In this document: one piece after another, positions 4,795-30,965 of the stretch
Layout of the letters: each line of letters begins with the position of its first letter
How positions within the stretch are numbered: position 1 is the first letter of the stretch
From: an uncultured Verrucomicrobiae bacterium
Lineage (GTDB): Bacteria; Verrucomicrobiota; Verrucomicrobiia; Opitutales; JABDGR01
DNA length: 64,000 nt
Direction of reading: 5' to 3'
NCBI GenBank assembly: GCA_963765205.1
Contig: CAVXVB010000008.1
Location: 320,001 to 384,000 of the forward strand
Notes under the pieces: model-generated
What the model saw: only the letters and a program-made list of their open reading frames with translations
The model's database searches: none
Told to the model about the DNA's origin: nothing
Position numbers and translations under genes: made by a program

Positions 4795-7251
4795 TTAGGC
4801 TTTTTCTTCCTCCTCCGCGTCTTCGGTTTCGATGACTTTGCAGAGGCCGACGAGTTTGTCGCCGGGTTCGAGGCGGACGAGGCGCACGCCTTGCGCGACG
4901 CGGCCGGTGGTCCGGATGTCCTTGACCGGCGAGCGCACGGCCTGGCCGGAGGCGGTGAGCATCATCACTTCGTCGTTCTCGCGCACGCTGAGCGCGCCGG
5001 CGACGCCGCTTTCCGTCTTGATGGCGATGACGCCCTTGCCGCCGCGCGACTGGAGGCGGAAGACGGGGCCGTCCTCGTCGTCGAAGGGCGTGCGCTTGCC
5101 GATGCCATTGACGCCGGCGACGAGCAACGTGCAGGCCGGGTCCACGACTTCCATGGCCTTGACGGTGTCGCCTTTGTCCAACCTCATGCCGATGACGCCG
5201 GTGGCGGGGCGGCCCATTTCGCGGGCTTCCTCCTCGGGGAAACGGATGGACATGCCTTCGGCGGAAATGAGGACAACCTGCTGGCCGACGGTGATTTCCT
5301 TGACGGCGATGAGCGTGTCGCCGGCCTCAATGTTGATGGCGATGATGCCGCCCTTGCGCACGTTGGCGTATTCCTTGAGCGCGGTCTTTTTGATGACGCC
5401 GAGTTGCGTGCAGAACATGAGGCTCTTGCCCGGCTCCTCGAGGGACTTCACGCAGACCATCGCGGTCATTTTCTCGTCTTTCTGCATCTGCACGACGTTG
5501 GCGATGGCGCGGCCCTTCGAGGTGCGGGTGCCCTCGGGGATTTCGTAAACTTTTTCGACATAGACTCTGCCGTTGCTGGTGAAGAACATCATGTAGTCGT
5601 GCGTGCTGGCGGTGAAGAGGTGCTCGACAAAGTCCTCCTCGTGCTGGCCGGTGCCGATGACGCCCTTGCCGCCGCGCTTTTGCGAGCGGTAGGCGCTGAC
5701 GGCGGTGCGCTTGATGAAGCCCAGGTGCGAGACGGTGACGATGCAGCCCTCGTTGGCGACAACGTCCTCCATGCGGAACTCGCCCTCGGCGGCGACGAGC
5801 TTGGTGCGGCGCGGCGAGGGAAACTTTTCCTTCAATTCGCGCAATTCCTTCTTGATGACGCCAAGGAGTTTTTTCTCGCTGCGGAGGATTTCCTCGTATT
5901 CGAAGGCCAGCTCCATGAGCTGTTTGTATTCCTCGGTGATTTTGTCGCGCTCGAGGCCGGTCAACTGGTAGAGGCGCAGGTCGAGGATGGCGTTGGTCTG
6001 TTTTTCGGAAAGGGGGTATTTGGCCATGAGGCGCACGCGAGCCTCGTCGCGGTCGGGGGAGCTGCGGATGATTTTGACGATGTCGTCGAGGTGCTTGAGC
6101 GCAATCTGGTAGCCTTCGAGGATGTGGGCGCGGTCCTGGACCTTGCGCAGCAAAAATTTCGTGCGGCGGGTGACGACCTCGCGGCGGTGCTCGACGTAGC
6201 AGTCCAGCATCTCGCGGATGTTCATCTGCTTGGGGCGGCGCTTGTCGAGCGCGAGCAGGATGACGCCGAAGGAGGCCTCGAACTGCGTGTGCTTGTAGAG
6301 TTTGTTGACGACGACGCGGGCGGACTCACCGCGCTTGAGTTCGAGGACGATGCGGGTCTTCTCGTCGGATTCGTCGCGCAGGTCGGAGACCTCGTCGAAG
6401 GTCTTGTCCTGCACGAGCGCGGCGATGTTCTGCGTGAGGGTGGCGCGGTTGACGTTGTAGGGGATCTCGGTGATGACGATCTGCTCCTTGCCGTTTTTGA
6501 TCTCCTCGGAGTGGCATTCGCCGCGCATGTGGACGATGCCGCGGCCGGTGCGCAGGTAGCTTTCGATGCCCTCGCGCCCGGCAATCATGCCGCCGGTGGG
6601 AAAGTCGGGGCCGGGGACGAGCTTGATCAGCTCGTCCATGGACAGGCGCGGGTTGTCCATGATGGCGCAAACGGCGTCAATCAGCTCGCCGAGGTTGTGG
6701 GGCGGGATGTTGGTGGTCATGCCGACGGCAATGCCGGTCGAGCCGTTCATGAGCAAATTGGGCAGGCCGGCGGGGAAGACGGCCGGCTCGGTGGACTTTT
6801 CGTCGTAATTGGGGCCGAAATCCACGGTGTCCTCGTCAATGCCGCGGAGGAGTTCCTCGGCGATGGCGGTGAGGCGGCACTCGGTGTAGCGGTAGGCGGC
6901 GGGCGGGTCGCCGTCCACCGAGCCGAAGTTGCCCTGGGGGTCCACGAGCGGGTAGGCCATGACCCAGGGCTGGGCCATGCGCACGAGAGTGTCGTAAACC
7001 GAGCTGTCGCCGTGGGGGTGGTAAGTCTTGAGCACTTCGCCGACGACGCCGGCGCATTTGGTGGTGGAGCGGTTGTGCAGCAGGCCTTCGCGCAGCATGG
7101 CATAGAGGACGCGGCGCTGGACGGGCTTTAGGCCGTCGCGGGCGTCCGGCAGCGCGCGCGAGATGATGACCGACATTGAATAATCAATGTAGGCCGTCTG
7201 CATGATGTCGGTGATGCTGGTCGGCGTCAGTTTTTCTTTGTCGGAGTACAT
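4795..7251 (-). CDS. gyrA: DNA gyrase subunit A
   Basis: [29 protein letters not shown], GyrA-box QKRGGKG. Confidence 0.97.
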
Positions 7252-7256
7252 TAGGA

Positions 7257-7293
7257 AAGGATGAAGGATGAAGGATGAGGGATGAAGGATGAA
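7257..7293. repeat. Heptamer array (AAGGATG)x5, arm downstream of the four-helix-bundle gene
   Basis: aaggatg aaggatg aaggatg agggatg aaggatg; 7271-7293 is the exact reverse complement of 7691-7713. Confidence 0.9.
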
Positions 7294-7306
7294 GAAAGCC
7301 CGCGGG

Positions 7307-7702
7307 TTATTTTTTCGAAACGGGTTCGCGGCGTTTCACGTTTTTCACACAGGTGCTGAGGATGGAAATGAGTTCGTTGGATTCGGTTTGCAGGTCGCGC
7401 AGACGCGGTTCTGGCATCAGGCCGGACTCGATGAGCAACTCCAACCAATATTGGGTTTCATCGAGTTCCTGAAGGGCCAATTCGAGTTTGGCGATGAATT
7501 CGGCATTGGAGCGGCTGCGCCGGGCCTCGCGGTGATGGGCGCCGACCGAAATGCCGGAACGCAAAACCTGCCGGCCGATGACTTGGCCTGCCTGAGTGCG
7601 CGGTAAAGCGGTGGAAAGTTTGATGACACGAAGGGCAAATTGTTTGAGCCGCGCCGAAAGGTCCGGCGCGGTGGGTTGGGTGGGTTTGGTTTCATCCTTC
7701 AT
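7307..7702 (-). CDS. Four-helix-bundle protein (23S rRNA IVP / TIGR02436-like)
   Basis: FALRVIKL...QVLRSGISVGAHHREA.RSRS.AEFIAKL..ALQELDETQYWLELL. Confidence 0.9.
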   Translation of the reverse strand: MKDETKPTQPTAPDLSARLKQFALRVIKLSTALPRTQAGQVIGRQVLRSGISVGAHHREARRSRSNAEFIAKLELALQELDETQYWLELLIESGLMPEPRLRDLQTESNELISILSTCVKNVKRREPVSKK

Positions 7703-7711
7703 CCCTCATCC

Positions 7712-7713
<2 letters not shown>
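7691..7713. repeat. Heptamer array (TTCATCC)x3, arm upstream of and overlapping the four-helix-bundle start codon
   Basis: ttcatcc ttcatcc ctcatcc tt; abuts the true gyrB stop at 7712-7714. Confidence 0.9.
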
Positions 7714-10254
<2,541 letters not shown>

Positions 10255-10371: not shown

Positions 10372-10452
10372 CTTCTACCTTCCACCTCCTACCTTCTATC
10401 TCCACGTTTTCCCCTTTCCGACCCTTCATCCTTCATCCCTCATCCTTCATCC
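10372..10452 (+). repeat. Two heptamer arrays (CTTCYAC-like, then TTCATCC x4) ending 6 nt before an ATG
   Basis: 10425-10452 is identical over 28 nt to the arm ahead of gyrA, including the CTCATCC variant in third place. Confidence 0.85.
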
Positions 10453-10458
10453 TTTCAT

Positions 10459-11535: not shown

Positions 11536-11949
11536 TCAGCCGGGCATCATCAACGACAACTGCTCGCGCTCAAACCGGCGGTAAACCTTGAAATCGCGCA
11601 TGTCCACGGTCACAACTTTGGCGCGGGGGAAGAGTTCGCTTAAAACCACGAGGGAGGCGTCGGCGGCGTCCATGCGCTCGAATTTCAACATCAGTTCCTG
11701 GGTGCGCCGCAAATGTTCCGGCCAAAGCGGAAACAGCACCAGCGCGCCGTGGCGCACCAAATCCAACAAGGCATGAGACTGGGAGGTGTTGCCGCCCAGA
11801 TGATGGCAGGCTTCGCCCAAGACAATTTCGGTTGTGTGCAGCCGGCCCCGGCGACCGGAAAGCGTCCGGTGGCTCCATTCGTGCCATTGGTCGGCTGCAT
11901 CCAGCCAGCCGATGAGCGGTCCGGCATCCACTATGGTTTCAACGACCAT
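11536..11949 (-). CDS. PIN-domain (VapC-like) toxin
   Basis: IVDAGPLI..., TEIVLGEA, MDAADASLV, TVD.RDF acidic PIN residues. Confidence 0.85.
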   Translation of the reverse strand: MVVETIVDAGPLIGWLDAADQWHEWSHRTLSGRRGRLHTTEIVLGEACHHLGGNTSQSHALLDLVRHGALVLFPLWPEHLRRTQELMLKFERMDAADASLVVLSELFPRAKVVTVDMRDFKVYRRFEREQLSLMMPG

Positions 11950-12154
11950 AGCCCTCGCGGGTGGAGAGATCGCCCGGCCCACGGAACATGCCGAGGTAGG
12001 GTTTGGCCAGGGTGGCAAAATCCGGCTCGGGCGCGGAGAGTTCGCGTTCGAGGGCGCGCCGCGTCAACACGGACAGGTTTTCCTTCCGCTTCTGCGCCTC
12101 GGTGCGCAAACGGCGGTTGAGAGTGGCGGTTAACTTGATGGTGAGTGAAGGCAT
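11939..12154 (-). CDS. RHH/CopG-type antitoxin
   Basis: MPSLTIKL...ENLSVLTRRALE, ends GPGDLST; overlaps the PIN gene. Confidence 0.8.
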   Translation of the reverse strand: MPSLTIKLTATLNRRLRTEAQKRKENLSVLTRRALERELSAPEPDFATLAKPYLGMFRGPGDLSTREGYGR

Positions 12155-14134: not shown

Positions 14135-14195
14135 GGCGAAACTATTTTTGAAAAATGTCTTGCATTATTCAAAATTTAGATTACCTTCTTTCACA

Positions 14196-15029
14196 ATGAA
14201 CGGCGAAATCATCATAGGGGATTGCGTCAAAGTCCTGGCCAAACTGCCGGATGAAAGTTTTCAGGCGATTATCGCCGACCCGCCCTATTTTCAAGTGCTG
14301 CTCGGAGAGGATTGGGACAACCAATGGCACTCGGAAGATGAATATCTGTCGTGGTTTGATAGTTGGGTGGGTTTGGCAAGTCGCAAGCTCAAGCACGATG
14401 GCCTGTTCTTTATTTTCGGCCAGTTGGGAAAACGCGAACATGCGTGGCTCCATGCCTGCTCGCGAACCGCCCGCCAGCTTCAATTTCATGACATGCTGAT
14501 CTGGGATCGGGCCGTGGGGTACAACGAGCGGTATGACAGTTTTACCCCTTGCTATGAAATGGTGCTGGTCTTGAGGAAGTCCGAATCGGCCAAGCCCTAT
14601 TTCAACAAAGATGTGCTCCGGGTGTCCTACGATGACGAGACGATTCAAAATTATATGCGGGATAAACGATACAAGGACATGGACGCGCGCCGCGAGCACT
14701 TGGAAAAAGGCAAATATGCCACCAACATTTTGCGCGTGCCCAGCCTCAAGGGTTCTTCCAAGGAAAAAGTCGGCCACCCCTCCCAAAAGCCGCTCAAGTT
14801 AATTCAGGACTTAGTCGCTTGTTCCACCCGCAAAGGCGATCAGGTGCTCGATCCATTTTTGGGGTCGGGAACGACCGCGGCGGCTTGTGAAAACCTTGGC
14901 CGCCATTGGACCGGCATCGAAACCCAAGCTAAATATGCCAAGCTGGCCGAGGCACGGATAAAAGATCTTGCGGCGGAAATGGCGCTTTTTAGCGATGTTA
15001 CTGCTGAAACGTCCTTGGTTGGGAGCTAA
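14196..15029 (+). CDS. Amino (N6-A/N4-C) DNA methyltransferase, beta class
   Basis: DPPY precedes HPSQKP and DPFLGSGTT; lower GC than flanks. Confidence 0.9.
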   Translation: MNGEIIIGDCVKVLAKLPDESFQAIIADPPYFQVLLGEDWDNQWHSEDEYLSWFDSWVGLASRKLKHDGLFFIFGQLGKREHAWLHACSRTARQLQFHDMLIWDRAVGYNERYDSFTPCYEMVLVLRKSESAKPYFNKDVLRVSYDDETIQNYMRDKRYKDMDARREHLEKGKYATNILRVPSLKGSSKEKVGHPSQKPLKLIQDLVACSTRKGDQVLDPFLGSGTTAAACENLGRHWTGIETQAKYAKLAEARIKDLAAEMALFSDVTAETSLVGS

Positions 15030-15633
15030 ACGGATTGGGTACGGCCCGGCCAAACAAAGATGATTTAACATCCACATAAGGCTGTTTGCCTGCCATTCCC
15101 CAAAATACCTCAAAAGGAAGGCTGCATTGCAGTCTGCGTTGCACTTTTGAATCAATCTTGGGATTCAAGACCATGCGGGCGTCAGAGAATGGCCGCTGCG
15201 ATTTACGAACCCGGGCCAATTCCCGCACCTCAGAATAATGCAGGCTTCGGTCTTTGATTATCTCATCAAGTTCTTGCAAGGCTTCCGCTGTAATTGGAGC
15301 GAACAAACTTCTCCATTGTGCCACTGTCACCTTGACCGCCTCAGTGGCAATGAAGTTTTTGAAAGGGCCGGTTTGTTCCCAAAACCCGACGATAAGAAGG
15401 AAATCCTCATCCAGAGCGAATTGGCGCAAAGCGTCACCAAAACCGATCGGTGATCGGTTTTTACAAGTTTTAATGGAAACGGGCAATGCCCTCATGGTGC
15501 CTGGAACGGCTTGACTGGCGTTGAATTCCGACGGAACATCCCATTTTGCCGTATAACCTTCAGGAAACGGCGCGAAAAAGCTCTTGATCACCCATTGCTG
15601 GAAATCAAAGCCGTGTCTTTGTACTTCAACCAT
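14998..15633 (-). CDS. Putative type II restriction endonuclease
   Basis: Convergent with and overlapping the MTase; KWD...SIK resembles a PD-(D/E)xK core; start MVEVQRHG inferred. Confidence 0.55.
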   Translation of the reverse strand: MVEVQRHGFDFQQWVIKSFFAPFPEGYTAKWDVPSEFNASQAVPGTMRALPVSIKTCKNRSPIGFGDALRQFALDEDFLLIVGFWEQTGPFKNFIATEAVKVTVAQWRSLFAPITAEALQELDEIIKDRSLHYSEVRELARVRKSQRPFSDARMVLNPKIDSKVQRRLQCSLPFEVFWGMAGKQPYVDVKSSLFGRAVPNPFSSQPRTFQQ

Positions 15634-15832
15634 GCGAGCTAAAAACAAACATTTACGCCAAGGTGGGCCAAGAAAAGGCGCCGGGCGCAAGCCTAAAGGT
15701 AGCGATCGCAGGAAAACGTTATCGGTTCGCATTGATCCTCAAATACTTAAGATACTTATCCAGACCGCACGCAACCAAGAAAAAAGCATGGGGGCAGTAA
15801 TTGACGAGGCCATTAATCATTTGCATGGTTAA
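15632..15832 (+). CDS. Small RHH DNA-binding protein with GGxRxGAGRKP motif
   Basis: GGPRKGAGRKPK followed by TLSVRIDP...SMGAVIDEAI. Confidence 0.6.
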   Translation: MRAKNKHLRQGGPRKGAGRKPKGSDRRKTLSVRIDPQILKILIQTARNQEKSMGAVIDEAINHLHG

Positions 15833-16149
15833 GTTTGCAAATCCGCGAGGAGCGACTTGGCGCCGGGGTGGCGTTTCGCCTTGCGCAAGTCTTCGCGCAG
15901 CGCCTCGCGCGAGGCGCGGTTGGGCGTCCGTTCCGCGTAACGCGCCTCGATTTCTGCCAGTGTGGCATTGGTCAAATCGAGATGCGAGCGCAGGGTGACC
16001 GGAAAGGGCAACTCTTTGCGCAGCACCACTTGCACATAAAAAAGGTTGATTGCCTGCCCGGCGGACAGGCCGAGCTTGGAAAACACCGCCTCGGCGGCGC
16101 GTTTGCGCCGCGGTTCCACCCGGGCGCGCAGAATCGTGGTCGTATTTAT
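15829..16149 (-). pseudogene. RelB/DinJ-family antitoxin, orphan, start codon apparently ATA
   Basis: ILRARVEP..K..AEAVFSKLGLS...AINLFY..V....LPF; no adjacent toxin gene. Confidence 0.7.
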
Positions 16150-16267
16150 GGCACAATTGTGCTTTGTTTGTGTCCGCCAGGCAAGCTCGTTTCCGGCGGA
16201 GCGGCGCAACACTCTGTCTTTGCCTCGAGGCCGTGCTTGTGCTCATAATGCCCGATTTCCTCCCCCC

Positions 16268-16642: not shown

Positions 16643-16796
16643 AATGGAAGATGGCCGGTGGAAAATGGAAAAAATCATTCGCCAGGCGGGGACTGATTTG
16701 TTTTACTTACCCCTCCCCCACCCCGCCGTGCAGGCTTGAGGCTGTTTGCTGTGCGGTTCCTGCGTTTTTTCCATCTTCCATTTTCCATCTTCCATT
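16643..16796. repeat. Inverted pair of heptamer arrays (AATGGAA / TTCCATY) with no ORF between
   Basis: 16643-16670 and 16769-16796; the second ends 2 nt before the Nudix ATG. Confidence 0.8.
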
Positions 16797-16798
16797 TC

Positions 16799-17485
16799 AT
16801 GAGTGAGCTTTTCGATGTCGTGGACGAACACGACCGCGTGCTGCGCCGCGAGACGCGCGCGGAAGTCCACCGCCAGCGCCTGCTGCACCGCGCCGTGCAC
16901 ATCCTCGTGTTCAATGCGCGCGGCGAAGTTTACCTCCAGCGGCGCTCCGCACAGAAGGACACCTACCCGCACCGATGGACGACCTCGTGCTCCGGCCATG
17001 TGGACGCGGGCGAGGACTACGATACGGCGGCAGTGCGCGAACTGGCGGAGGAACTGGGGTTGGCGGGGGCGAAGGTGAAGAAGGCGACTAAAGGGACTAA
17101 GGCACTGAGGCACAAAGGCACAGAGGAAAGGCCGGGAAAAGACAGAGCGCCAAAAAACCAGGCGCATTCTTCCCAATCTGCAACTTGCAACTTGCAACTT
17201 GCCGCCAACAACCTGCAACCTGCAACCCAACTCGAAACCCGAAACTCGAAACCCGAAACTATCGTCCCATTTGTAAAACACCCCCCCTGCCGCGAGACCG
17301 GCTGGGAATTTATCTGGATTTACACCCTGACCACCAACGCGGCGCCCGCGCCCGACCCGGGGGAGATTTCCGAAGGACGCTGGATCTCACCCGACGAACT
17401 CGACGCGTGGATGAGCCGCGAGCCAAAGGCCTTCACGCCGTCCTTTATACTGGTGTGGAAATTGTGGCGGGAGGCGCAGGAGTGA
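16799..17485 (+). CDS. Nudix hydrolase (IPP-isomerase-like) with repeat-derived in-frame insertion
   Basis: [29 protein letters not shown]; insertion at about 17065-17260. Confidence 0.88.
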
Positions 17486-18317: not shown

Positions 18318-20513
18318 TATAGCCCGGCCTTGGCGCGGAACTGGTCGAAACTTTCGGGGTCGAGTTCCTCGATAAACCGGCTCGGTTCGAGGACGGCGGG
18401 CGGGCCGCCCTGGCTGACGATGCGCGGGTAGAGTACATACAGTTCGTCCCGCGCGCGCGTGGCCGCGACGTAGAAGAGGCGGCGCTCCTCCTCAACGTCG
18501 CCGGAATCAATGGCGCGCTTGAGCGGCAGCAGGCCGTCGGCTGCGCCGATAATGAAGACGACGGGGAACTCCAGCCCCTTGGCCTGGTGGATGGTGGTGA
18601 GGCGCACGGTGTCGGCGTCCGGCTCGACGGCGCGGTCGCTTGTTTCGGAATTGAGGAGCACCAGTTGCGCGAGCAATTCGTTCATGTCCGCGAAGCGGGA
18701 GGCGAAGCCGATGATGCTGTCGAGGTCTTCCCGGCGCGACTCCCAGTTGTCGTAGATGTTGCGGAGGTAATCGCCATACCAACCTTCGATGGCGAGGCGG
18801 ACGACATCGGCGGGCGAGGGGGCGGAGCCGGAAGTGTGGAGTGTGGAGTGTGGAGTGCGAAGTGGAGGACTGGAACCGTTTTTAATTTCGACATCAAACA
18901 ACGCTCCTTGCGTTCCGGGCATTCCTTCTTCATTGGGCGTTGGATGTTGAGTGTTGGATGTTGGATGTTGTCCGGGATGAAGTTGCGCCACGCCCAACTG
19001 GGCGAGGGTTTCCTCGAGATTTTGGAGGGTCAGCGCGAGGTCCTTGAAGTCGGCGCGGGCCTCGGCGGGGAGTTTCGCGGCCACGGATTCCGCCGTCAGC
19101 GCGCCAATCAAAGTTTTGCCCTGCGCGCGTGCGGTTTGCTGGGCGGCGGCCAGCGCGCTCTCCGCCTTGCGCGGGCCGACCTTGGGCAGCAGCGACGCGA
19201 GGCGGATGAAGGCCACGGTGTCGCGCGGGTTGTGCGCGAAGCGCAGGTGCGCGGTCAGGTCGCGCACATGCGCCTGCTCAAAGAACCGCACGCCGCTGGT
19301 GATGGTGAAGGGCACGCCGGCGCGCGACAGCTCGATTTGCATATCCATCGCCTGGTAATGCGCGCGGTAGAGCACGGCGATGTCGCGCAGCGCGACGCCG
19401 TCCTGGTCGTGCAATTCGCGCAGGCGCGCGATGACGAAGGCGGCCTGCTGCCGGGTGTCGAGCGCGGCGATGACGACGGGCCGGCGCCCCATTTTGCGCA
19501 CCGGGCGCAGGTGCTTGTGGAAGCCCTCGGCGACGTGTTGATGATCAAGGATGCCGTTGGCGAAGCACAGCACCTCGGGCGTGCTGCGGTAATTGATTTC
19601 GATTTTGAAAATCCGCGCGCCGGGGTGCCGCTCGGGGAAGCGGCGGATGTTGTCGAAGTTCGCGCCACGCCAGGTGTAGATGCACTGCGCGTCGTCGCCC
19701 ACGGCCATGAGCTGGTGCTCGGCGGCCAGGAGGTCCACGATTTCCGACTGCAATTTGTTGGTGTCCTGGTATTCGTCCACGAGGATGTGGCGGAACTGCC
19801 TCTGATAATGGGCGCGGGCGGCCTCGTCGCGTTGCAAAACCTGGAGCCAGTATTCGAGGAGGTCGTCATAATCGGCTACGTGCTTCTCGCGCTTGGCCTG
19901 CTGGTAGGCGGCGGCAAATTTATGCAGCGGGCCGGAAATTTCCTCGAGCCACGGGTATTTTTCGGCAATGACCTCGCCGAGGGTCTGGCGGGTGTTGCGC
20001 GCGTAGCTGATGACCTCGGCGACCACGCGGGGCTTGGGATGCTCCTTGTGTTTGGTGAAGGCCGGGTCCACGGCGCGGATCACGTCGCCAAATAGCGCGT
20101 CGGCGTCGCCCTCGTCGAGGATGGTGAAGTTCGGCGGGAGGCCGGCGGCCTCGCCGTGGCGGCGGAGCACACGCTGGCCCACGCTGTGGAAGGTGCCGCC
20201 CCAAAAGCGCGCGCGGGGCACGCCGGTCAGGGTCCTCGACGCGGCCGAGCATCTCGCGCGCGGCTTTGTTGGTGAAGGTCAGGAGCAAAATCTGCCACGG
20301 CTGCGCGCCTTGTTCGAGGAGCCAGGCCACGCGGTAGGTCAGTGTGCGCGTCTTGCCGGAGCCGGCGCCGGCGAGCACCAACGCGGGGCCGGGCGGGGCG
20401 GTGACGGCGGCCAGTTGGTCCTCGTTCAGGGCCGCAGCATAATCAATCGGCGCGAAGGCCCCCGGCGCCAGTCGCGCCAGCATGCTCTCGTTGCTTTCGA
20501 TTTCGCCAGCCAT
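18314..20513 (-). CDS. UvrD/PcrA-family ATP-dependent helicase (1-nt frameshift near 20231)
   Basis: [18 protein letters not shown] in 19920..20513; [36 protein letters not shown] in 18314..20221. Confidence 0.92.
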
Positions 20514-20609: not shown

Positions 20610-21626
20610 ATGCCCTTTGACCCCGCCGACCTGCGCGTCGCCCCCGGCGCGCATGACCCCCTCCGCCACCACCGCCCCGAGGCCAGCCTCGGCTTGGGCG
20701 ACAAGGACGCCGCCGTCGAGGCCCTCGCCGAACTGCTGCCCGAATTGCGCAGCCTGCACGACCGCCTCAACGCGCAGCGCACCTGGTCCTTCCTCATCAT
20801 CCTGCAGGCGATGGACGCGGCGGGCAAGGACGGCATCATCAAGCACGTACTGACCGGCTTCAACCAGCAGTCGTGCCATGTGACGAGTTTTTCCGCGCCC
20901 GTCGGGGCGGAACTGACGCACACGTTTTTGTGGCGCTGCGTGGCGGCGCTGCCGGCGCGCGGGCACATCGGCGTCTTCAACCGCTCGTATTACGAGGAAG
21001 TGCTCGTGCCCCGCGTGCGGACGGAATACCTCGTCTATCAGGGTCTGCCCCCGCCCTGCCTGCGCGGCGACATCACGGATTTGGGGCAGGGAGGGAAAAG
21101 AATGGAAGAGGGAAAATGGAAAATGGAAAAAACCGGAACGCAAAATAGTTTTGCCGAGTTCGAGGCTAAACTCGCCGCGCGCAACACGAAACCGCCTTCG
21201 CTCCCACCGCCGGCTTTCTGGCAAGCGCGACTGGACGACATCAACACCTTCGAACGCCACCTGGCGCGCAACGGCACCCGCATCGTCAAATTCTTCCTGC
21301 ACCTTTCGCGGGAGGAGCAAAAACGGCGCTTTTTCACCCGCATCGAAGACACCGCGCGCAACTGGAAATTCACCCCCTCGGACGTGCGCGACCGCCGCTA
21401 CTGGGACAAATACCACCACGCCTATTCTGAAATCCTGACGACGACCAGCACGCCGTGGGCACCGTGGTATGTCATCCCGGCCGATTACAAATATGTGGCG
21501 CGCCTGGCCGTGGCGAAAGTTCTCGTCCGCGAACTCAGCGAGCTGCACCCGCACTATCCGCGCTTGGACAAAGCCGGCCGCAAAGCCCTCATCAAAGCGA
21601 GGAAAGAATTGGAAAAGGAAGGTTGA
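20610..21626 (+). CDS. ppk2: Polyphosphate kinase 2 family protein with in-frame insertion
   Basis: QAMDAAGKDG, FNRSYYEEVL, KFFLHLS, PWYVIPAD. Confidence 0.9.
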   Translation: MPFDPADLRVAPGAHDPLRHHRPEASLGLGDKDAAVEALAELLPELRSLHDRLNAQRTWSFLIILQAMDAAGKDGIIKHVLTGFNQQSCHVTSFSAPVGAELTHTFLWRCVAALPARGHIGVFNRSYYEEVLVPRVRTEYLVYQGLPPPCLRGDITDLGQGGKRMEEGKWKMEKTGTQNSFAEFEAKLAARNTKPPSLPPPAFWQARLDDINTFERHLARNGTRIVKFFLHLSREEQKRRFFTRIEDTARNWKFTPSDVRDRRYWDKYHHAYSEILTTTSTPWAPWYVIPADYKYVARLAVAKVLVRELSELHPHYPRLDKAGRKALIKARKELEKEG

Positions 21627-29429: not shown

Positions 29430-29755
29430 GCTGATTGCTGAATTCGGAATGCGGAGTTCGGAATTCTGAGTGCGGAATAGCGGGCAGTGTGTGTGGGGGG
29501 GATTTTTGAATGCTGATTTCTGATTGCTGAATAAGGAATGCGGAATGGAGGCTGCCATGGATTGCGGGGAAGCCGAAGGAGCCGGGAGAGGGACGGGTGA
29601 AATGGTGGCGGGAGTATAAGCTAAATGGGGCGGGCGCGCAAATGCTCGGTTGGCTGCGTTGGATCGGTTGGCTGGGTTTGATGCGTTGGAAGGAGGAGGG
29701 AAGTGTGGAGGGTGAAGTGTGGAGTGCGGAGTTCGGAATTCGGAGTGCGGAGTAA
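29430..29755. repeat. Cluster of degenerate heptamer arrays (AGTGCGG/AATTCGG/AATGCTG)
   Basis: 7-nt periodicity at about 29433-29482, 29506-29547 and 29702-29750; similar array at 30910-30957. Confidence 0.8.
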
Positions 29756-30769: not shown

Positions 30770-30965
30770 GTGATGGGTGCAAGAGAGGGTCAGGCTGCGG
30801 CTTCTTACCTAAATTTTGAGAGAATGGATCAAGTTTTGGGCGGGAGGGAGGGTGGAAATGAATTTGGCCTGGTAGGTAGGGCGGAGCGAGGCAAAATTGG
30901 GGGGGCGGGGATTGTTGATTTCTGAATGCTGAATTCTGAGTGCGGAGTGCGGAATATGGGGGCGC

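Follow-up and report, generated by a model that had tools for sequence, protein, structure and literature searches.

We propose that a small gene lodged between gyrB and gyrA in this uncultured Verrucomicrobiae bacterium forms a working pair with a population of heptamer hairpins scattered through the same genome. The gene encodes a PF05635 four-helix-bundle protein, lies between inverted heptamer arms and has descended vertically under purifying selection. The protein clade to which it belongs is linked to one heptamer word, that word is more abundant in the genomes that carry the gene at this site than in relatives that do not, and at fixed junctions one word has been replaced by another. 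These observations lead us to favor a model, to which we give an even chance of being right, in which a vertically inherited gene of Avd-like fold and its cognate hairpins resemble a REPIN-RAYT pair, the protein likely reading the word and helping the hairpins to spread.

The window, by which we mean the whole 64,000-nucleotide stretch of DNA analyzed here, belongs to a genome designated G000, and its relevant features are collected in the table. On the minus strand gyrB ends in a stop codon (7714-7712) and is followed by the 5' arm, a 131-codon ORF (7702-7307), an array (7294-7257), 5 nt and the gyrA ATG at 7251. The initial annotation had described exact inverted 23-nt arms bracketing a gene in the gyrB-gyrA operon, an arm that supplies the gene's ATG and a second array that ends 5 nt before the gyrA ATG, and all three points stand. 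The arms (7271-7293 and 7691-7713) are 23 nt each, 397 nt apart, built of the unit AAGGATG and 100% reverse-complementary; the sole in-frame ATG of the ORF (7702) lies inside the 5' arm with a Shine-Dalgarno-like purine run, and the gyrA-side array (7257-7294) stops 5 nt short of the gyrA start. The 5' arm also shares 2 nt with the gyrB stop (7712-7714), and the same reading frame opens from an in-arm ATG in the two related genomes that hold the gene at this site, G003 and G006. In a predicted fold of the transcript the arms close a long stem (-170.1 kcal/mol, z -4.84) that none of 100 shuffles equalled; its counterpart in G003 and G006 extends to about 2-4 nt from the gyrA ATG.

Table. Features of the window, with strand and the evidence used for each assignment
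Feature	Positions	Strand	Evidence
gyrB, upstream gene	7712..10242	-	Pfam matches; PF00986 split over two frames; translation
5' purine-rich arm: three heptamer units + 2 nt, second unit variant	7691..7713	-	
Four-helix-bundle gene, 131 aa, PF05635/TIGR02436	7307..7702	-	
3' array, pyrimidine-rich on mRNA, five units + 3 nt	7257..7294	-	
gyrA, downstream gene, 818 aa	4795..7251	-	Pfam, ORF
AAGGATG-word array just 5' of a start codon, enclosing no gene	10423..10454	+	
Gene-less hairpin, different heptamer family, same architecture	16659..16795	+	

The cassette lies outside any 23S rRNA gene and, as had been claimed, has no transposase of its own. At this locus Rfam gave no match at the gathering level, no sigma-70-like promoter was found, and none of three terminator-like matches involves the stem between the arms. 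All three carriers (window 7252-7711; loci L026 and L022) have the same spacing of 460 nt between gyrB stop and gyrA start, despite differing arm lengths, ORF length and trailer. The gyrB frame contains a one-base frameshift near 7857-7860, in a G/C run, and its true stop appears only in the other frame; a public contig (run X1, possibly from the source sample) spanning 7265-7917 has 0 substitutions and one gap relative to the window, so the frameshift is probably an assembly error. Another run, X3, contains a joint with a 21-nt loop that may derive from the gyrB-gyrA junction. Elsewhere in the window, an interval after recA (about 14180-15732) holds two ORFs that face each other and that we take to be DNA methyltransferase-like and nuclease-like, and a PIN-domain-like ORF (11536-12018) and a RelB/DinJ-like ORF (15829-16212) are presumably toxin-antitoxin genes.

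What the initial annotation overlooked is that the arms are part of a genome-wide hairpin population. G000 contains 237 period-7 arrays, compared with 7-63 for the other periods from 4 to 12. An inverted partner lies within 1.5 kb of 107 of 275 arrays and a direct partner of 24, and random relocation gave 31 in 1375; the period-7 excess and the difference from relocated arrays argue that the inverted heptamer arms did not arise by chance. The purine-rich arm comes first in 43 inverted pairs and second in 5, and 60 of the 80 inverted pairs span at most 200 bp. Sixty-four arrays are built of the AAGGATG word, and the exact 23-mer of the gyrB-gyrA arms, variant unit included, occurs 21 times, which defines a dispersed repeat family. 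Of the 46 23-mers with a single mismatch, counted with overlap, 44 have the identical change. The variant unit that the annotation had singled out is indeed present in both arms, but it is not private to them, and we therefore rejected it as proof that the arms co-evolved at this locus.

Among 52 loops compared each is unique, the only similarity in the matches listed being remnants of arrays. When large pairs were inspected for other cargo between period-7 arms, they proved to be two separate hairpins around ordinary genes, and a consistently longer 3' arm, which would free the start, was not found (medians 25 vs 27 nt). Heptamer arrays of other words, some mixed, lie in the window at 17179-17259, 18833-18970, 21111-21130, 29712-29753 and 30922-30953. 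Nested hairpins, in which an array of one word lies inside or beside an arm of another word, were seen at G000:C9:51789-52000 and C5:455705-455868, an arrangement that insertion of new hairpins into older ones would be expected to leave.

The family and fold previously assigned to the protein are both borne out; members of this family were originally recognized inside ribosomal RNA genes. The ORF scores 67.7 bits against PF05635 (cut-off 33.8) and 88.2 bits against TIGR02436 (cut-off 24), and matches 2RLD with an E of 1.7e-20. Its predicted structure has four helices (pLDDT 89.5) and aligns in Foldseek with 2RLD (TMq 0.77, rmsd 1.6), with 2GSC and, at 18% identity, with Avd (4DWL; E 3.5e-3, TMq 0.73). 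Homology to 2RLD, which has five chains, to 2GSC and to Avd suggests that the protein is a pentameric ring, and the structure of a Xanthomonas family member is cited as a homopentameric ring in the accessible text of PMC4990558. The nearest named relative among the matches listed (86% identity) is labelled uncultured Opitutales, and PF05635 is present in 107 of 151 genomes sampled from the phylum. A search that lay largely outside subscription papers found no literature on TIGR02436, and in the accessible part of PMC5524665 the gene appears only within tables.

The association of this family with periodic arms extends to its paralogs. G000 has seven PF05635 genes, two of them with an internal stop, and six of the seven are flanked by inverted periodic arms of 12-23 nt that begin at the upstream stop, as the annotation's interest in the paralogs had anticipated; the armless paralog is one of the broken copies. 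Each armed paralog has a different word, with period 7 in five and period 8 in one. Among 456 genes of 100-150 codons, any inverted flank was found in 13 and period-7 arms in six; four of these six belong to the PF05635 family, and two are ribosomal-protein genes between separate hairpins. The single GxxExxY gene of the genome (G000:C8:182461-182736) has the same cassette layout with arms of a 9-base repeat, and in another genome (G039, locus L019) a GxxExxY cassette occupies the gyrB-gyrA slot. No reverse transcriptase lies beside the gene, whose neighbors are gyrB and gyrA, and PF00078 had 0 matches in the 92% complete genome. Three Y1 transposase-like genes (G000:C5:148180, C5:557983 and C9:1167743) have their own non-periodic inverted repeats of 19-32 nt, as RAYT genes have REPs; since these repeats are unrelated to the heptamers and non-periodic, we rejected the Y1 transposases as cognate movers.

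To see how far the protein and the word go together we turned to relatives in other phyla, using 186 of 194 loci for the arm analysis. The best 80 of at least 528 candidate relatives have 51-63% identity, L147 excepted, and come from Planctomycetota, Chloroflexota, Acidobacteriota, Pseudomonadota, Cyanobacteriota and others. With L147 (a probable duplicate of a family copy) and L194 (short flank) left out, inverted arms flank 71 of 78 of these best relatives, compared with 13 of 78 in the direct-orientation control; the corresponding figures are 48 of 65 (control 6) for the phylum sample and 38 of 43 (control 0) for the family. In a tree whose search stopped before completion, the window's clade comprises 96 rows with support 99 and the other clades 90 rows. 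Counting the non-coding 3' arm only and allowing at most one mismatch to the AAGGATG word, we found the word in 58 of 80 labelled clade members and in 1 of 62 labelled others. Among 65 upstream genes adjoining the clade's cassettes, 47 are different. Desulforhopalus vacuolatus DSM 9700, a cultured bacterium, also has the cassette (locus L162). A further comparison used 43 of 48 loci from 10 distant genomes, split or weak matches having been dropped; the word accompanies 9 of 16 clade copies there, a count that includes the seeds used to choose the genomes, and none of the 11 paralogs from other clades to which a word could be assigned. Part of this linkage can reflect gene and arms travelling together, and kin are not independent. 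The link is also incomplete, as 22 of the 80 clade members use a different word and several words occur among the orthologs at one junction. One clade of the protein family (L002, L038, L039, L041, L042, L045, L047 and L051) has arms of 8- or 9-base units instead of heptamers, at several different sites.

The gyrB-gyrA site itself has a long history. We fetched 30 gyrB loci from 38 genomes with a match, and gyrA was adjacent in 28. The junction is variable among relatives, as the annotation's reading had implied: the gene is present in 3 of 8 family genomes (G000, G003 and G006), the G003 and G006 copies having the same arms and 84-86% identity, and in 0 of 21 junctions outside the family. In G004 the two gyrase genes are 53 nt apart and the gap holds a remnant of the AAGGATG word without a gene; the spacers of G001, G002 and G008 resemble hairpins and consist of other words, and that of G007 is GC-rich. 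On the gyrase tree the carriers do not group together (G000+G002, 90/94; G006+G007, 95/99; G004 basal, 100/100), and the simplest reading is that the gene was present at the family root and was then repeatedly lost or replaced. Among the three genomes with the gene at this site, its dS (0.86-1.36) equals that of gyrA (0.71-0.82) and gyrB (0.93-1.08), and its dN/dS, at 0.07-0.12, is like that of gyrase, which together indicate vertical inheritance under purifying selection. The initial annotation had called the cassette neutral and selfish; given the gyrase-like dS and low dN/dS, neither term is supported. We infer that this immobile yet conserved copy does something for the cell. In G006 a private change is present on both arms.

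The words at fixed junctions have turned over while the sites persisted. At one junction, which by its translations we take to be moxR-DUF58, orthologous genes in seven family genomes have several different words; the same junction apparently holds the gene with other words in distant families too (L283, L287, L288 and L291), and would thus be a very old site. Arms vary in concert, an arm's own partner being its best fit in 21 of 29 cases over nine sites (median score 19 vs 9). Eight junctions have the gene in a relative and not in G000, the remaining loci being shared sites or non-syntenic; at six of these G000 has a gene-less hairpin, with another word in five and one not comparable, and at two a single arm. 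In the reverse direction, of 40 AAGGATG-word sites taken from non-carriers 19 were syntenic, and the corresponding G000 junctions have another 7-, 8- or 9-base word in 10 cases, the same word in five (one weak) and none in four.

We also compared the abundance of the word in eight related, incomplete genomes. The carriers have 34, 48 and 17 two-unit matches per Mb, the non-carriers 8, 8, 8, 2 and 0; carriers thus rank 1-3 of 8, about 1 in 56 by rank if the genomes were independent. A second word gave low counts. Across 150 genomes of the phylum the pattern was found in 17, with more than six copies only in G160 (69) and G186 (12). The clade gene is present in 10 of the 17 genomes with the word and in 35 of 133 without it (p 0.01), a comparison that is partly circular, as the cassette's own arm counts. 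G160 has a close gene with degenerate arms, and G186 only a 49% relative. G122 and G055 each have a close gene yet a single copy of the word, so the gene is not sufficient for expansion. Three genomes of one family (G110, G137 and G146), in which the forward word is nearly absent, are rich in the reversed pattern (73, 12 and 3 matches).

REPIN-RAYT systems offer the closest parallel. According to the accessible text of 10.1101/2022.05.22.493013, in these systems a vertically inherited gene is present in a genome as several diverged copies, every copy has a repeat of its own, and the repeat is dispersed as gene-less inverted intergenic doublets of about 100 bp with conserved ends and variable spacers. 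The hairpins described here are dispersed in this manner, and the gene shares the vertical inheritance and purifying selection, as judged from three genomes at the gyrB-gyrA site. The differences are that PF05635 is a four-helix bundle rather than an HUH Y1 transposase, that the arms are tandem non-palindromic heptamers rather than nested palindromes (REP), and that the heptamer cassette also occurs across many phyla and at many sites. With the defining transposase and palindromic arms absent, the heptamer system would work like REPIN-RAYT without being a member of it.

We envision a scenario in which the five-part protein ring binds the single-stranded array, probably as DNA, and recruits a host or unlinked enzyme that would copy hairpin arms into or over existing hairpins. 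Catalysis would thus be supplied in trans by a putative enzyme, and recruitment would be analogous to the way Avd serves its reverse transcriptase. The mRNA stem between gyrB and gyrA may be tolerated if it is opened by the ribosome finishing gyrB, or by RNase III. As described in the accessible text of 10.1101/2023.10.23.563531, Avd (4DWL, 8UB7) is a pentamer that binds nucleic acid and assists a copying enzyme; the protein studied here has the same fold, but it shares only the distant sequence identity given above, and lacks both a DGR context and a reverse transcriptase in its genome. This last absence counts against the REPIN-RAYT-like pair, as do Y1 genes that have their own repeats and non-carriers with up to 8 copies of the word per Mb.

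An unlikely alternative is that the ring binds arrays in mRNA, as would a ring protein that reads periodic repeats, controls its own in-arm start and tunes translational coupling at many junctions, with the repeats spreading by ordinary recombination. Such a post-transcriptional regulon would account for the purifying selection on the gene, for the 38 of 88 clade cassettes in which the only ATG lies inside the arm, and for the way arms abut genes, the median hairpin starting about 3 nt from a stop and ending about 10 nt from a start codon. It is also consistent with the binding of RNA by Avd (10.1101/2023.10.23.563531) and with the proposal that heptamer arrays 5' of start codons are regulator sites (PMC4679880), each as given in the accessible part of the source. 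However, relatives exchange words at the same junctions, and the gene is missing from gyrB-gyrA in 5 of 8 family genomes. The positions of the hairpins argue against it as well: of 63 short hairpins typed with a rough gene caller, 42 lay between co-oriented genes, 11 between divergent and 6 between convergent ones, and four inside gene calls, a mix about equal to the background (about 69/18/13%) and thus without bias to co-transcribed junctions. Nor did we find the excess of G-U pairs expected of RNA pairing. Stem mismatches on the mRNA strand were 90 G-U against 113 A-C in 157 cassettes and 16 against 19 in 42 gene-less hairpins; the cross-phylum subset alone leans to G-U (31 vs 21, p 0.21). 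There is thus no sign of selection on RNA pairing by this test, a weak one because arrays are alignable out of register.

Somewhat less likely again, in our judgment, is the reading of the initial annotation, in which the cassette behaves as an intervening sequence (IVS) at the level of mRNA: RNase III would cut the stem and free the ORF, and a neutral selfish cassette would spread by recombination through conserved flanks. Stem lengths of 23, 29 and 33 bp in the three species suffice for RNase III; the enzyme's gene is encoded in the genome, and cleavage of the mRNA stem is plausible and may occur. Among 20 sequencing runs listed one is of RNA, and its contigs show no depth over the gene. The scattered positions of the carriers on the gyrase tree fit this reading too. 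Excision of an IVS, however, is a cut without re-ligation and therefore could not join gyrB to gyrA, leaving the cistrons separate. Flank-like dS and strong purifying selection speak against neutrality and recent homing, and the gene-less hairpins, the clade-word link and the swapping of words are left unexplained. Gene-less hairpins also lie at convergent and at divergent junctions, about as often as the background mix predicts. A point in its favor is the Coxiella burnetii 23S IVS. According to the accessible text of PMC4990558, RNase III cuts its long terminal stem of 28 bp, the loop encodes S23p, a member of the same protein family, and the 5' arm has tandem heptamers immediately ahead of the S23p ATG, with a Shine-Dalgarno-like run. 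The link to IVS architecture made in the initial annotation is thus sound. Unlike the Coxiella element, the gyrB-gyrA cassette lies between protein-coding genes, its arms come from a genome-wide repeat family and its ORF is under purifying selection, whereas the Coxiella IVS ORF is decayed and probably unexpressed (PMC4990558, accessible text).

Finally, slippage could make heptamer runs and template switching perfect the inverted pairs, the gene merely sitting there; template switching would yield concerted change of the arms, as is seen. We consider such a mutational by-product improbable, although heptamer repeats are common in many bacteria (PMC4692102, accessible part), because one protein clade is found with one word across phyla, at 47 different sites, the same variant unit turns up in nearly all single-mismatch 23-mers (overlapping counts), and only the PF05635 family among the 456 small genes is truly bracketed by period-7 arms. 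The REPIN-RAYT-like pair, the mRNA regulon and the RNase III-cut cassette are not fully exclusive readings.

Intergenic heptamers have been described in Xanthomonas and Nostoc (PMC4692102) and in Beggiatoaceae (PMC4679880), with purine-rich runs after stops and pyrimidine-rich runs before starts, and those of Xanthomonas also occur as inverted pairs (PMC4692102), like the hairpins of G000. The accessible parts of both papers contain 0 mentions of a helix-bundle protein; in G000 many words coexist and several are tied to a paralog. We found no literature linking the PF05635 family to dispersed heptamer hairpins, in a search outside which most subscription papers and supplements lay, and a similarly incomplete coverage, without supplements, yielded the layout of an ORF within a heptamer stem only for the Coxiella 23S IVS.

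Structures have been solved for PF05635, a large family whose function is not known, and the excess of heptamers in bacteria is likewise unexplained; our data tie the two together, each paralog coming packaged with its predicted ligand. A bolder generalization, which we hold only tentatively, is that each four-helix-bundle paralog is a ring that reads a word of 7-9 bases and causes an enzyme, of the host or unlinked, to put this word in the two arms of intergenic hairpins, whether new or already present, making these widespread short mobile hairpins without a transposase of their own. If true, this would explain the bacterial heptamer excess, and the S23p-bearing 23S IVSs would be the same element landed in rRNA. 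If the protein drives hairpin spread, it would represent a REPIN-like system with new chemistry; if instead it reads arrays in mRNA, it would head a regulon touching core operons, among them those of gyrase, ATP synthase and ribosomal proteins.
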